A DNA stretch of 62,969 bases, filler included, from Reclinomonas americana ATCC 50394 (GCA_048213135.1; 8 parts of 3 records of this genome joined end to end with filler, not necessarily neighbours in it), one strand, 5' to 3'. Shown: positions 1 to 61,600, numbered from the whole stretch's first letter. Program-made: numbers and translations. The notes: generated by a model not told the origin, from the letters alone.

Positions 1-3000
1 ACGAATCCATGGAGACCACAAACCGAGACAAGGGTACGGATGATAATCTGTCATGGCTCGCTCCGGGCAGTAGTAGCCAGGCTGGCACGCCAAGCAAGCC
101 GACGAATCGCGACCCAGAGGTGCTGGGTTGTAGGTACCAGTGGGGCATGCCTATGATGTACGAGAAATGTGTCAGAGAGAACTGCACTCGCCGCTTCTCA
201 CTCTCCCCACCCAAGCAAGCCTCACACACCTGCTTGTCTGTCTGGAAGGGGCAGTAGTAACCAGCTGGGCACGGCTTCGGTACTGGATCGCCCTCGAAAC
301 ACTCGTAACCGGCGGGACAAGGTCCACAATCCGATTGTTGCTTTCCGCCTGGCAACACACTGTGAGTATCCCAAAACGCATTGTGTCACTGTCTCTCTCG
401 TACCTTGATTCGGATTAAAGGTGCCGTTGTTGCACGGAATCGGCAACACCGCCGCCGCAGGGCAGTAGTGACCGCGCGGGCACAGACCGCCAGCAGCGTT
501 GGTTTCACCATCGTACGGTGGGTTCGGACGATCGATGCCAAAGTAGCAAATGTAGCCCGACGTGCAGTCGCCTGCCACGAGGCCGGCGTTGCAGTACTTG
601 GTGGCGGGACACTTGGCGCAATCGGTGGCCGACTGCAAGCCCACATACGTGCTGTTGGTGTAGGTGCCGTTGGGGCAGAACGGCGGGAAGGCCGTGCCTG
701 TAGCGAAGAAAAAGTAAGATACAAGAAGACGAAAGCCACACCCTCACTTCCTCCATGCATGCATACCTGCGGGGCAGTAGTGGTACGGCGGGCACGTTTG
801 CGGATCGGTCTGATTGTTGGAGCAGTAGAAACCGGCAGGGCATGTCTTGCACGACGACTGCTTGATGGTGTCCTGGAATGTGCCGTCGGCGCATCCCTCC
901 GGTGCGGCAGAACCCACTCGGCAGAAGTAACCAGTGGGGCACTCGTACGCAATGGGCGACGATGTCGACTGACCAGGCGGGCAGTAGAATCCGGCAGCAC
1001 ACGGTGCAGTCACCGCCGTGAGGCCAGTACCCGTGCAATACGAACCAGCCGTGCAAGGCAAGCAGGCAGCAGCCGATGCACCACCAGTGCTGCACAAAAA
1101 GCACAATCATCAGTTCCCCGACAACACACGTGGCGCTGGACAAGGCTGACGAAACGTCGGGTTGAAGGTGCCAGTGAGGCAGGCAGTGGGCGACAGAGTG
1201 CCGGCCAGGCAGTACGAGCCAGCTGGGCACGGACCGTTGGTGGCAGGGGCGATTCCATTCGGATTCGGCACCGATGCTCCCTGCACAGAGAACGACAGAG
1301 TGAGCTGCTGGTGTGCGCACACTTGACGTGAAGAACAGACGCACCGCAGGGCAGAAGAACCCAGCCGCACAGTTGTTGGTGGGCGCGGTGTTGCCAGTGT
1401 TCTGGCAGTACTTGCCGGTGGGGCACGTCAGGCACCACGTAGAGTTGGTGGCGCCTTGCAACGGCTGATACGTGCCGGCAGGGCACTGCGTCGGTGTGAT
1501 CGAGTTCGCCGGGCAGTAGCTGCCGGCCGGGCACGTCGTGAAGCGATCGAGGCCGTTGGTCGGGCAGTACTTGCCTTCTGGGCATCCGAGACACGCCGAG
1601 GCGCCGACATTCGGGTTGTACGTTCCCGGTTGGCAAGAGCGCGTGGCCATGCTGCCCTGTGTGCAGTAGGTGCCCACTGGACAAATGAAACCAAAGGTTT
1701 CGTTCATCGGGCGCGCCGTGTATGAGCCGCCGAGACACACAAAGCCAGCCTGCACAAATCACCCCCGAGTGAGAATGAGAACTCAAAACTCTTGGCAGTT
1801 ATCGTGATTCTCAACAACAACGCAACATCGCACATGCCGGTCGACTGCATACTCAAATGCAAACTAGCGCAGTAGAGGCCAGCTGGGCACGGCGAGCAGT
1901 CGGCAATCGAACGACCACCTGCGATGGTTGTGCACACAGTGAGTGAGACGAAAGTGACCAGATAGCAGGACGAGAACAGAATACGCAACGAGTGGTGAGC
2001 GAGTAAGTGCCGATCGGGCAGGGCGTCGGTCCGCTGGCGCCAGACGGGCAGTAGTAGCCAGCGGGACACTCGTTGCCGGTGATACCGTCCAGCGGCTGCG
2101 ACGTGGTAGCCTTGCGCAAGCAGTAGAATCCGGAAGCGCACGCTGCTGTCGGCACCGGAAGTCCACTGGTCTGGCAGTACTGGCCAGGCAAGCAGTCGGC
2201 GCAGGCCGACGAGGCGACTGCGTTGGTGGTGTTCTGGTAGGTGCCAACTGGGCAGGGGTTCTGCACCGCACTCGCAGTGCCACTGGGGCACCAGTAACCC
2301 TTCGGGCAGTCTGCCGGCTGGGCGTACGACTGACCGCTGCAAAAGTTGTTGGTCTGGCAGTAGAAGCCCGGCAAGCAGGTCTTGCACGCGGAACGGCCTG
2401 TCTGGTCCTGGTACTGGCCGTTGTTGCAGGCCTGCGGACGACAAAGAGTGAGTAAAAAAAGAAATTGATCTGCAAGACGGCAGGCGTCTCACGCAAAGCA
2501 ACTGTTGGTGACGAGGAGCCAGCTGGGCAAATGTAGCCAAGAGGGCACAGGTAGGCGGCCGGATTGGGAACGCTCTGGCCAATAATCGCTGGCTCGGAGG
2601 GACCCGATCCAGCCTGCTGTGGGCAGTAGAAACCGTCGGAGCACGAGGCAGTGATGCCAGTGGCTCCGGGACCGGTGCAGTACTTGCCGAGATCGCATGC
2701 CGTGCACGAACTGTGCGAAAAAGTGTCAGACCAGGAGGGTAGATGGATCGCCAACTCGCCAGTGTCGTGCGCACCTGACAGAGGTGCCGCCCGTGGACGC
2801 ACGATATGTGCCAGGCGGGCAGCGCGTAAATGTCGACGAACCCAGAGGGCAGTAGCTGCCGGCGGGGCAGATGAACTGGGTGGCCGTGGTCGAACCGCCA
2901 GTGCAGTAGTATCCTACCAGAAACAACAGGCAAGTCAGGGAATGAAATATGAAGAGAGAGGGAGGATTGAAGAAAAAAAAAAAGAGAGAGAGAGAGAGAG

Positions 3001-58624: not shown

Positions 58625-61600
58625 CCGAGGCACTGGATCTGGGGACGGTGCGACGTCCAGAGGAGCGTACGCCGGGTGCAACTGATAGTGTGGTCGCATG
58701 CTGACATTCGTCGGCAGCTTGAACTGGTCGTTGCTGTCGACGGCGTGCAGCACACGATAGCACAATTCGACACGGGGCACACTGCACATGCGCGCGTGAG
58801 ATGCCAGCGCATGGAAAAGAGTCGGACATGATGGTGATGTACCGTGTGGAGGCACTGTCGATCGACGTCACATCAGAGGCGGGAACCACGGGCGCAAAAT
58901 ACAGCGGTGCTTTCCAGTAGCCGGTGAGCAGTTGAGGCACGTCGCCGCCTGCGAAAATGTCCAGCGCGGCCCATCCCACCGACTGCACAAGTGACAGGCG
59001 GGTGAGGACTCGACAGGCGTGACGGAGAGCAGAAAACGAATTCGTGTCACTCACTTTGGTCTTGTGTGGCTCTCTTGGTCCGCGGCCGTGTTGCACAATG
59101 ATCGACACCTCACAGATCACATACATTGTCGGCGATGCGGTCGTCTGGAGTCGCGAGAATGAACAGTCAGCAGTCTCTTTGGAGCAAGGAGGAGAGCAGC
59201 AGTGGAGATGCAACCTTTGGGAACTGGCGCTCCTCTTGAATGATGCCGTGCTGGAAGGACATGCCGCCCGACGTGGTGAAACAAGGGGGCATGGCCTTGG
59301 GTCTGGTGACGGCATTCGCGCCGTCAAACACAGCGTACGCCACTTGGATTTCATCAGCGTGCTTTGGCAGGTTGAAGATGAAATCCCTGGCCACAATCAA
59401 TCGCAACTGGTGAGATTGAGTCAGCGACAACACCACAGTGGCGACGCGCCACTCACCAGATAATGGAGAAGCCTTCATCGTAGTTGTACAAACGACGGGG
59501 AATATCGACAGCGTCCACCGGCACAGTTGTGCTCGCCAGCTGCACTTTGGTACGGGCCTGTGGGATTGCGGGTGGAGTGAGCCGACAGAACCTGCAACAG
59601 AATGCAAAAAGAGCGACTGACCTCCTCCAGCGCATGCATTTGCTCTTCGTGCCACTTTTCGCGTTCGCGTTTCTCCAGCTCCGCCTTGCGTTTCTGGTCG
59701 GCCTCCTTGCGCAGCGCTGTCAACTTGTCCTCGTAACTCAGGCGGTCGATTTCGTATTTCAAGCGCGTGATCTCGCGAATGTGTTGCATCCGCAATTCGT
59801 ACAGCTGAGGGTCGGTGCGTTCTGCAGTTGCGACAGCGTGTCGAGTGAGTGACACGTGAACAGGGATGAGCAAAACAATATCTACATCGCACACGCACTG
59901 ATACGACGGAGCTCGCGCTCGTACTCTTGCTCCTCGTCGTCCATGCTGTGCTGAAGCGGTCAGTGCGGCCATTATCGAAGCACGCACACGCAATCGACGC
60001 AACTCGGCTGTCTTGGGTCTCCTCTCGTCTCTTCCCGCAGCACCAGCGGCACCACCAGCTCCGCCGCCACCGCCCGCGCCTCCGCCACCACCCATGTTCT
60101 CGATTTTCGATGCCAACTCGGCCAATTGCCGCTCGAACACTGGTACCGCGAGGTGAGTGCGTTGACAGGGTGGGGAGACACGACGGAGGGGCCATGAACA
60201 CGCAACATCGGTCGGAGCCGCTCTGCGGTGCGGCAATCTGTGCCAAGTCGCGTTGCAGGCGTTGGTTCTGATAGAACAGAAACGAATGTAGTTGGCATTT
60301 GATTTTTGAAAAAACAAGTGAGAGAGACAAGTGCGAACCTCCATCTCGTTCTGCTGAATGAGTTCATTGGTGGCCGCAATCTGTTGCTGCAGTTGTGCCA
60401 GCACCGGATTCTGGAAGGCGATGAAGAGAGACGTGTCAGACAACTGCCAATGAGGTCGGAAGAAACCACATGCGCCACCATTGGCATGCCGTAGGGCGCT
60501 TGCATGCCCATCGCGCCGTACGGTGGTGCGCCGGGATGGTGGGGCATGCCGGGGACCATCATGCCATACGGCTGCTCCATGTAGGCAGGCAGCGGAACCA
60601 TACCCGGGTGCTGACCAGGATGGACAGGAAACATACCCGGAGCGCCCCCGTTCGGGAACTGCCCGGCCCGAGTCGGTGTGGTGTCGCCAGCGTGGAACAC
60701 TGGCGGTGACGGTGGGATGTCGTGCATGTCGATATGACGCGGCACGCCCTGAATATCCTGGATGGCATTACGAAGCGACTCCATTTCCCTGAGGATTTGT
60801 TGCAACACCGATGTCTCGGCTGTCCACACACGCACAAGGCGCGATCAGAATTGCGCAGCGAAGAGAGGGGCACCGGAGGGTGATCAGAGCAATCTACTTT
60901 ACCTCCAGCACCAGCACCAGCTGCGATCGAATCGGCGCCGTGATTTGATCGCAGTGGTGGTCTGCGCAGAATGTGGCGGAACAAATTTCAGTGACACGAT
61001 GAGAGGCACGCAATCCATCACCTAAGTTACCTTGAGGAGGAGAGACGTGGAGTGGCTCCACGACCGCTACTGTCGGCAGGCTGCACGAGCGGTGAGCCGA
61101 TGAAATGTACAGCCGCTGCACAGTGGAGATCGACAACGCACCTTTCTGCTGGCTGCTGTCGTACCTGTTCGCTGCTTCTGCAACATTTCCACCTGCTGGC
61201 TGATCTGCTGGCTCTGCTGCACGAGGCGACGGCGCTCGGCGGCCACCGAGTCATCCTCGTGGTCTTGCTCTGCAGTCAAAATGCGATGAGTCGGGGAGGT
61301 GGTGCCAGTGGAGCGACAAATGCCAACGGCGCAACTGTCGGCCAGCTCCTTGAGCAGCAGCTGGCTCTCGGAGCGCAGCGTTCCCAACTGGTGCATGATG
61401 CGCGTGTACGTCTGGTGACTGACACCAGCCGCAGAGCTCACCAATCGATCGACCTCTGTTGCAACACAAGAGCAAGTGAGCGTGTGCGTGCAGATCGCGA
61501 TTAGTTCTCTCAGTCGTGGCAACGACACCTTCGGCAGTGGTCAGTCGCTGAGCGCGCGTCGACGGTGACGCGGCGTCTGCCAACAGTGGATCCTACAGTG

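Follow-up and report, generated by a model that had tools for sequence, protein, structure and literature searches.

The window analysed here, a 62,969-base stretch of DNA from Reclinomonas americana ATCC 50394 (GCA_048213135.1), is eukaryotic and rich in introns, a substantial minority of which appear to begin with an unusual 5′ splice site (donor), GTTGCGT. The likeliest reading of our analysis is that these are real GT-AG introns of the major spliceosome with the donor N|GUUGCGU (the bar marks the cut), making up roughly 13–22% of the introns of the window, and we put the probability that GTTGCGT is a real donor class at about 0.85. The pattern corresponds to the ordinary donor G|GTGCGT in which the second G has become T and the cut has moved one base upstream, to the sole GU. 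Every count given below comes from this single 63-kb window, which includes 7,061 N in 33 runs.

An earlier note on this DNA had placed 25 GTTGCG donors by hand-splicing, and a direct check found the hexamer at all 25 positions on the expected strands; 23 of these sites go on with T, giving GTTGCGT, and the other two (57779 and 61335) with C. The hexamer occurs 63 times on both strands together (GTGCGT, 64 times; GTGAGT, 60 times). For the heptamer GTTGCGT, 33 copies were observed on both strands, against 8.0 expected under an order-2 Markov model and 9.5 under an order-3 model, and the 10 copies not claimed as donors correspond to the chance expectation of 8–9.5. No excess was found for the other bases inserted after GT (GTAGCGT, 2 observed versus 3.7 expected; GTCGCGT, 9 versus 11.3; GTGGCGT, 13 versus 14.7), and GTTGAGT was observed once, versus about 5 expected.

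Introns were modelled with a purpose-written dynamic-programming gene finder, whose terms (codon usage, an acceptor matrix, the branch motif and, later, intron composition) were all trained on this very window. In the donor-blind runs the donor information was reduced to GT, and the strictest of them also dropped the first 8 intron bases from the composition term. The two-register run used a simple donor score that accepted, besides the canonical register, one displaced by a single base. Candidate introns around single donors were also scored by a local search, with a coding score on both sides. Introns are called clean when they contain no N and measure at most 400 nt. The earliest runs joined genes across long false introns and shadow strands; the two-register models are coherent, with SmF recovered whole and a large repeat gene carrying 31 introns.

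GTTGCG was the commonest donor hexamer in a donor-blind run (6/64 introns) and again in the strictest one (7 of 54 clean introns, 13%). The two-register run yielded 110 introns in models with at least two introns, the earlier estimate having been about 120. Among its 82 clean introns, 48 have G at +5 (hereafter ordinary introns), 23 are of the shifted type and 11 are of other types. The 23 shifted-type donors comprise 18 GTTGCG (22% of the clean introns), two GTTTCGT and one each of GTTGAGC, GTTTAGC and GTTTTGC. With T as the extra base of the shifted register, the gain was +120.8 nats and 23 introns were placed in the class; the decoy extra bases A, C and G gave +5.6, +17.4 and +13.2 nats, with 2–4 introns placed each. 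A share of 13% (donor-blind) to 22% (two-register) suits the earlier description of a mainstream second donor class, the word 'lineage' in that description standing for one 63-kb window.

Junctions fixed by homology or motif spacing

Five junctions (29416, 17547, 15646, 49634 and 49529) are fixed by protein homology or by motif spacing. The first intron of the SmF gene (29416..29562, plus strand, 147 nt), placed by homology and chosen in two runs including the two-register one, has the donor AA|GTTGCGT. Exon 1 encodes the eight residues MNHLLNPK and ends at AA|GTTGCGT; the acceptor ...CACAG| is followed by G CCA TTT CTG. Since exon 2 encodes 22 residues that align over their full length with SmF (residues 9–30 of 3cw1_F and 10–31 of 3jb9_I), exon 1 supplies exactly eight residues and the cut falls before the G of GTTGCGT.

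The IBA57/CAF17 gene contains two such introns. For the first one to be considered, placed by homology (17547..17619, plus strand, 73 nt, donor AGA|GTTGCGT), the exon ending at 17546 matches human CAF17 (6qe3_A 175–235) through its final residue (E 7.6e-20). Among 10 tblastn homologues taken from the 120 listed, 10/10 align up to 17546–17549 in frame 3 and 3/10 resume at 17743–17770 in frame 1, which is the shift made by the 73-nt intron. The other intron (15646..17325, plus strand, donor AGC|GTTGCGT) contains an N gap and was chosen in three runs, the two-register run not being among them; 7/10 of the homologues align up to 15623–15644, and their residue numbering carries on at the next exon. 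Exon 3 of this gene gave one unrelated match among solved structures (60S ribosomal protein L5, E 0.022).

In the RING-H2 gene, on the minus strand, the intron 49574..49634 (61 nt, donor TGA|GTTGCGT) is placed by homology to AMFR and synoviolin, the RING domains of which match a 36-residue exon through its final residue (...LPCSHLFH). The intron 49470..49529 (60 nt, donor CAA|GTTGCGT), which separates CP|MCR, was chosen in the two-register run. Splicing out both (49634–49574 and 49529–49470) yields HEACIRPWLMTSTICPMCR, in which the C3H2C3 pattern is complete, and reading through meets stop codons. The seventh Cys thereby stands 14 residues past the His of LPCSHLFH, as in AMFR (QDTSCPTCR, chain positions 45–53). 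A further intron of this gene (49746..49822, minus strand, 77 nt, donor CGA|GTTGCGT) was chosen in two runs including the two-register one, and a frame change is needed there; the similarity to AMFR and synoviolin (DATPEDL...) begins at residue 2–4 of the downstream exon, and the exon upstream of the 49822 donor has no match among solved structures.

The earlier note had named the conserved motifs NPK|PFL (SmF), KR|VLP (IBA57) and CP|MCR (RING) as fixing donors. At 29416, 17547, 49634 and 49529, where homology fixes the frames on both sides, the predicted cut lies at the GU with which the intron starts. Using the GT inside GCGT as an alternative donor adds 5 nt and breaks the frame at all the junctions fixed by homology or spacing.

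Exon base rule and intron properties

The base preceding the 25 listed donors is A in 12 cases, T in 8, C in 4 and G in a single one (3383), as had been reported, and ordinary donors do mostly follow G (19/20 in the repeat, SmF and RING genes). In the strictest donor-blind run, G at −1 was found in 0/7 GTTGCG donors versus 24/28 donors with G at +5 (p = 4.9e-5). The two-register run gave 0/23 for the shifted type versus 38/48 for ordinary donors, but because canonical donors with G at −1 are favoured by the score of that run, the fair comparison is the donor-blind one. Of the 33 GTTGCGT copies counted in the raw sequence, 2 follow a G. The −1 base of shifted-type donors (A 13, T 7, C 3; n = 23) resembles the ordinary −2 base (A 23, T 9, G 10, C 6; n = 48), with its preference for A, and not the ordinary −1 base (G). 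The exclusion of G at −1 is stronger than any register predicts.

The donors themselves are nearly uniform, 16/23 being exactly GTTGCGT and 16/23 matching six of the seven positions of G|GTGCGT in the shifted register. C at register position +4 is found in 20/23 shifted-type versus 19/48 ordinary donors (p = 2.6e-4). The two classes are otherwise alike, in features that the acceptor score of the gene finder favours equally in both: the branch motif YTNAY, mostly CTCAC or CTGAC, is present in 21/23 shifted-type and 47/48 ordinary introns, and its median distance to the 3′ end is 20 versus 19 nt. The 3′ tetramers, pyrimidine content and G+C are also alike, and the median intron length is 73 nt for the shifted type versus 69 nt for ordinary introns. 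Shifted-type introns are in phase 2, 1 and 0 in 10, 7 and 6 cases (n = 23), and ordinary introns in phase 0, 1 and 2 in 26, 15 and 7 cases (n = 48). This enrichment in phase 2 is about what an A/T requirement at −1 gives with G+C-rich third positions; G+C reaches 77% at the third codon positions of coding DNA in the window.

Three other identities were considered for these introns and set aside. Introns of the U12 type, spliced by the minor spliceosome, have the donor RTATCCTT and the branch motif TCCTTRAY near the 3′ end. They resemble the present class in that genes with ordinary donors also contain another, sharply defined donor motif. The donor here is not RTATCCTT, however, a U12-like branch motif was found in 0/23 shifted-type and 0/48 ordinary introns, and the branch site agrees with that of ordinary introns in both motif and distance. 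Introner-like introns, which derive from mobile repeats, were also rejected: trimmed blastn of the 23 class introns against all 82 returned only microsatellite matches of 11–25 nt, with a single class-to-class pair, of 17 nt. Finally, an intron starting at the TT after G, with its 3′ end one base later, would keep the frame but seems improbable, as it would require variable 3′ ends (AGT, AGC, etc.) in 13/23 cases.

Introns in this window usually measure 55–200 nt, and their branch motif (CTCAC or CTGAC) lies about 20 nt upstream of the acceptor, preferentially GCAG|G or ACAG|G. Ordinary donors are loose at +3 and +4 (GTGAGT, GTGCGT, GTACGT, GTGTGT, GTCTGT).

How the GTTGCGT donor may be read

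Both the RNA that reads the site and its register are inferred here from the pattern of donor and exon bases. We give a little less than an even chance overall, and about an even one if the class is taken as real, to a shifted register of U1. A small nuclear RNA (snRNA) that reads the ordinary optimum G|GUGCGU would pair one base out of register: the first G of the intron would occupy the slot of the exon's last G, U+2 would stand as a single mismatch opposite the position that normally pairs with G+1, and UGCGU would pair as +2 to +6. The cut would stay at the sole GU, presumably set later by U6, U5 and Prp8, and the base before the donor would behave like the ordinary −2, preferring A. Because one pair is lost, only otherwise perfect sites (TGCGT) would be used. 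The earlier note had recognized in these donors the pattern of atypical sites read by shifted U1 pairing, and the sequence statistics do fit a one-base shift: they are T-specific, with a near-perfect TGCGT and a −1 base like the ordinary −2.

Pairing of U1 in such a register is well established for human cells, where the validated noncanonical registers together correspond to 1.5% of 5′ splice sites, as summarized in PMC4856993. The mammalian shifted sites of the A|GUUAAGU type (Roca and Krainer, 2009, as described in PMC4856993) share with the present class a GU followed by U and then by the ordinary +2 to +6 displaced by one base, a cut at GU and a base before the donor resembling the ordinary −2 (A). 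They differ in being rare in human, whereas the class amounts to 13–22% of modelled introns here, and in their displaced core, UAAGU instead of UGCGU; moreover, G at −1 is almost excluded here. Strict membership among shifted-register sites is defined by U1 pairing demonstrated through compensatory U1 changes; by its sequence, the GTTGCGT class would work like such a site.

C at +4 is also found in the strong donor AG|GTGCGT(G) of Mamiellophyceae, reported for Ostreococcus (PMC2483917) and Micromonas (PMC3879977), together with a CTGAC-like branch site. The available portions of these two reports describe only the canonical register and mention no GTTGCGT class; the present organism differs further in being intron-rich. 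In a tunicate, the available text of PMC13326754 raises a shifted register merely as a possibility. Literature searches covering titles and abstracts (supplements being outside their scope) gave, among the matches listed, no link between GTTGCGT, GUUGCGU, GTTGCG or GUUGCG and splicing, and no description of a lineage in which a shifted, bulged or noncanonical register is common.

Several observations weigh against this reading. Whereas 20 of the 25 claimed introns were chosen in at least one gene-model run (19 in the two-register run, plus 15646 in three others), four sites (7382, 38352, 50970 and 57522) found no support, and 61335 was supported locally only. All junctions were placed from protein homology, reading frames and the purpose-written gene finder alone, the acceptor, branch and composition terms of which were trained on this window, and everything comes from one 63-kb stretch with its 7,061 N. 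G at −1 (0/23) is scarcer than the shifted register predicts, since the ordinary −2 is G in 10/48 cases, and T at −1 (7/23, about 30%) pairs with U1 in neither register. A duplex sketch, made with ordinary RNA parameters without pseudouridine and with two of its three U1 ends hypothetical, gives −2.5 kcal/mol for GUUGCGU and −6.9 kcal/mol for GUUGAGU with a human-type U1 end, opposite to the counts of 33 versus 1. These energies suggest that C at +4 is read either by U1 itself in this organism or by a second U1 or some other factor. The shifted-register model would thus need either a U1 whose end is complementary to GUGCGU or a different reader. With a hypothetical end of this kind, the sketch gives −10.4 kcal/mol for A|GUUGCGU, on a par with the ordinary G|GUGAGU (−11.1), whereas GUUGAGU would be too weak (−4.9). 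A search of the window for snRNA genes found no Rfam match at gathering scores, and only microsatellite look-alikes at E values up to 1.

A bolder proposal, to which we give well under an even chance, is that this organism has made a one-base shifted register into a mainstream donor class, under selection and with an exon rule of its own, together with an snRNA change. This change would be either a U1 5′ end, elsewhere near-universal, now complementary to GUGCGU or a second, one-base-changed U1 serving about one-fifth of the introns. If true, it would amount to a second, register-defined donor code inside the major spliceosome.

The same donors could be read in a bulge register, in which standard U1 would pair normally with G+1 and U+2, bulge one U (+2 or +3) and read GCGU as +3 to +6; we consider this unlikely. 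The number of pairs equals that of the shifted scheme, save for the optional pair at the base before the donor, and the extra U after GU restores full complementarity to the U1 5′ end, as in the human bulge +2/+3 sites. The latter are proven in human cells according to PMC4856993, which reports 68 predicted sites, 54 of them kept after curation (Roca et al., 2012; Tan et al., 2016). U beside the U of GU is the sole base with a degenerate bulge position, which could explain the T-specificity, and a site with G at −1 folds as a bulge in the duplex sketch (−10.2 versus −10.4 kcal/mol). However, G at −1 would then add a G:C pair and should be expected as in ordinary donors (24/28), whereas it was seen in 1/25 listed donors, 0/23 modelled ones and 0/7 donor-blind ones, a lack for which a bulge register offers no reason. 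The shift is therefore favoured over the bulged U, given that G is nearly absent and A preferred at −1 and that the core has to be otherwise perfect.

We hold it equally improbable that a second U1, or a U1-like variant, reads the class in the normal register, through a 5′ end complementary to GUUGCGU (e.g., with one change opposite U+2), with ordinary donors using standard U1. The class at least equals G|GTGCGT in frequency, raw counts in the window being 33 for GTTGCGT and 19 for GGTGCGT, and its motif is highly uniform, as seen above. A hypothetical complementary 5′ end pairs at −14.7 kcal/mol in the duplex sketch, and variant U1 genes are reported from other organisms. However, the Rfam search brought no direct support from the window, and G at −1 would wobble-pair about as well as A (−14.0 versus −14.7 kcal/mol), which leaves the lack of G unexplained.

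There is only a slim chance that GTTGCGT is enriched as a coding or regulatory word, with donors misplaced by both hand-splicing and the gene finder and the true donors lying elsewhere. The junctions are indeed deduced from DNA and protein comparison, 4/25 sites have no support, models switch between neighbouring donors at 7756 (GTGCGT 6 nt upstream) and at 17532 versus 17547, and a 20-codon coding-drop test did not set any donor class apart from random GT. However, a donor placed elsewhere at any of the five homology-fixed junctions breaks the frame unless its distance is a multiple of 3 nt, conservation at 17547 extends to the base before the motif, and the donor-blind gene finder itself picks GTTGCG, in addition to which the non-donor copies are as few as chance predicts.

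An assembly artefact, in which the extra T would stem from over-calling of a homopolymer, or from a G misread as T, at ordinary G|GTGCGT donors, is the least credible explanation: the draft scaffold is gapped, with many breaks at microsatellites, but a G-to-T error would shift the exon end by one base and break the homology-fixed frames (SmF AA|G...CAG|G CCA), an inserted T would imply donors that lack G at −1, a base present in 24/28 ordinary ones, and 64 GTGCGT copies are read without such an error.

Noncanonical U1 registers are known as rare exceptions, and they make human splice-site mutations harder to interpret. A genome using one such register for about one-fifth of its introns would be a natural experiment on the uncoupling of the position defined by U1 from the position of cleavage, and would bear on the limits to drift in 5′ splice-site recognition and on a possible co-evolution of snRNA 5′ ends with the donor consensus. 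In practice, gene finders relying on one position weight matrix would get about every fifth intron wrong in this genome, each error shifting the reading frame or adding or dropping codons.

Other GTTGCG sites and features of the window

A Pfam analysis of the 150 longest of 722 six-frame open reading frames detected Ephrin_rec_like repeats (minus strand, 0.5–11.5 kb), a class I/II aminotransferase, ribosomal protein S16, and SET, CK2-beta, LSM, Arf, TPR and RING domains. The Ephrin_rec_like repeats, rich in Cys, belong to one very large gene (34–14013, minus strand) that runs off the low end of the window, with at least 2,350 codons, about 31 modelled introns and several assembly gaps inside. 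Three of its introns were recovered in three donor-blind runs each: 10488..10562 (75 nt, donor GCA|GTTGCGT), 1919..1989 (71 nt, CTC|GTTGCGT) and 1750..1826 (77 nt, GAT|GTTGCGT), all on the minus strand. The Tyr-to-Cys spacing of uninterrupted repeats is preserved over the junctions at 10562 (Y-x7-C) and 1989 (Y-x11-C). The intron 2914..3383 (minus strand, four runs), with the donor GCG|GTTGCGT that provides the sole G at −1, contains an N gap, which may hide an exon. At 7377..7382 (minus strand), GTTGCG is present after a 45-nt coding piece with the Cys motif; N runs on either side (7297–7316 and 7428–7482) prevent its acceptor from being placed.

In the TPR gene (plus strand), the introns 45765..45823 (59 nt, ACA|GTTGCGT; the strictest donor-blind run and two more) and 46894..46955 (62 nt, CGA|GTTGCGT; two runs including the two-register one) are each the best local model, and 46239..46321 (83 nt, CTC|GTTGCGT; two-register run) is the second-best. 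The aminotransferase gene contains the intron 21262..21336 (plus strand, 75 nt, TAT|GTTGCGT; two-register run). Reading through its donor hits a stop codon at 21277–21279, which is the gene end in two other runs, and the downstream exon corresponds to Aminotran_1_2 positions 254–353; a search with the aminotransferase exon against longer proteins found no homologue.

The donor at 48319 (minus strand, AGA|GTTGCGT) starts the last intron of the RING-H2 gene or of the gene that follows it, with an acceptor at 48255 (65 nt) or 48197 (123 nt). The local search leads to ...LRLTGNNVE[N]AINVLLDR followed by a stop codon, and the two-register run picks 48197. The UBA-like exon at this donor gave one unrelated match among solved structures (E 0.15). 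An unnamed gene contains the intron 34875..34957 (minus strand, 83 nt, ACT|GTTGCGT; two runs including the two-register one), which is also the best local model. Another unnamed gene, running from 60784 to 56181 on the minus strand, has four such donors: 59946..60003 (58 nt, CGA|GTTGCGT; strictest donor-blind and two-register runs), 60140..60206 (67 nt, GAT|GTTGCGT; two-register run, best local model), 57717..57779 (63 nt, CCA|GTTGCGC; two-register run, best local model) and 57983 (CAT|GTTGCGT; two-register run), the last one with competing acceptors at 57925, 57862 and 57661.

The candidate intron 61270..61335 (minus strand, 66 nt, ACA|GTTGCGC) is the top local model, and the two-register run read through it in frame. 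Around the claimed donor GTTGCGT at 50965..50970 (minus strand), the two-register run preferred two weaker introns ending at the same acceptor, 50708, and the HRD1-like exon at 50970 has no match among solved structures. The claimed GTTGCGT donors at 57517..57522 (minus strand, coding scores negative on both sides) and 38352..38357 (plus strand, upstream coding score negative) were chosen in no run. An additional candidate, absent from the earlier note, is the intron 53648..53729 (plus strand, 82 nt, CAT|GTTGCGC), which was chosen in three runs, with minus-strand models contesting the strand.

The parallel forms GTTGAG (6451 and 51210) and GTTTCGT (1155, 3924 and 57646) are likewise present where they had been reported, all on the minus strand. 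The introns concerned are 51136..51210 (75 nt, CGA|GTTGAGC; two-register run, best local model), 5541..6451 (CCA|GTTGAGT, with an N gap; four runs), 1090..1155 (66 nt, GAC|GTTTCGT; two donor-blind runs) and 3857..3924 (68 nt, ATA|GTTTCGT; two runs including the two-register one). For 57574..57646 (73 nt, GTC|GTTTCGT), a candidate, there is a local model only, with a poor downstream coding score.

Two pairs of nearby donors between which the models switch are candidate alternative 5′ splice sites. On the minus strand (7756–7762), GTGCGT at 7762 lies 6 nt from an in-frame GTTGCG at 7756; on the plus strand (17532–17547), GTTGTG at 17532 lies 15 nt from the in-frame GTTGCG at 17547, which homology favours.

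Seven identical linkers, N44-TTAATTAATTAA-N44, with stop codons in all six frames, join contigs at 4524–4623, 18774–18873, 23118–23217, 27079–27178, 33592–33691, 45027–45126 and 58386–58485, and five other N runs measure exactly 20 N each. The breaks lie mostly at (GA)n or similar microsatellites. The linkers and the breaks at microsatellites indicate that the window is a stitched draft scaffold, in which gap sizes are not real.

When compared with a collection of 5.8 billion proteins, the TPR exon (45127–45750, plus strand) matched generic TPR proteins at 26–34% identity, and the IBA57 exon (17328–17546, plus strand) had its best matches, 62–78% identical, in scattered eukaryotes; the organism's own protein was absent in both cases. 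A metagenome scan with the IBA57 exon gave 80 loci with a best identity of 66%, hence no close relative for intron comparison. As neither the own TPR and IBA57 proteins nor close relatives were found, the lineage seems to be unannotated and thinly sampled.

Microsatellites based on ACGT (GTTACGTTACG, GGTACGGTAC and CGTACGTACG), at 37632–37651, 40671–40680 and 42291–42306, flank intergenic N runs and explain an apparent excess of GTTACGT and GTACGT. GTTACGT (11 copies versus about 2 expected) was considered as a donor and rejected, 10/11 copies sitting in such microsatellites beside gaps. The second intron of the SmF gene (29631–31821, 2.19 kb; the other two measure 147 and 62 nt) holds a 167-nt tandem repeat in 6.5 copies that are 85% alike (29944–31016, plus strand).

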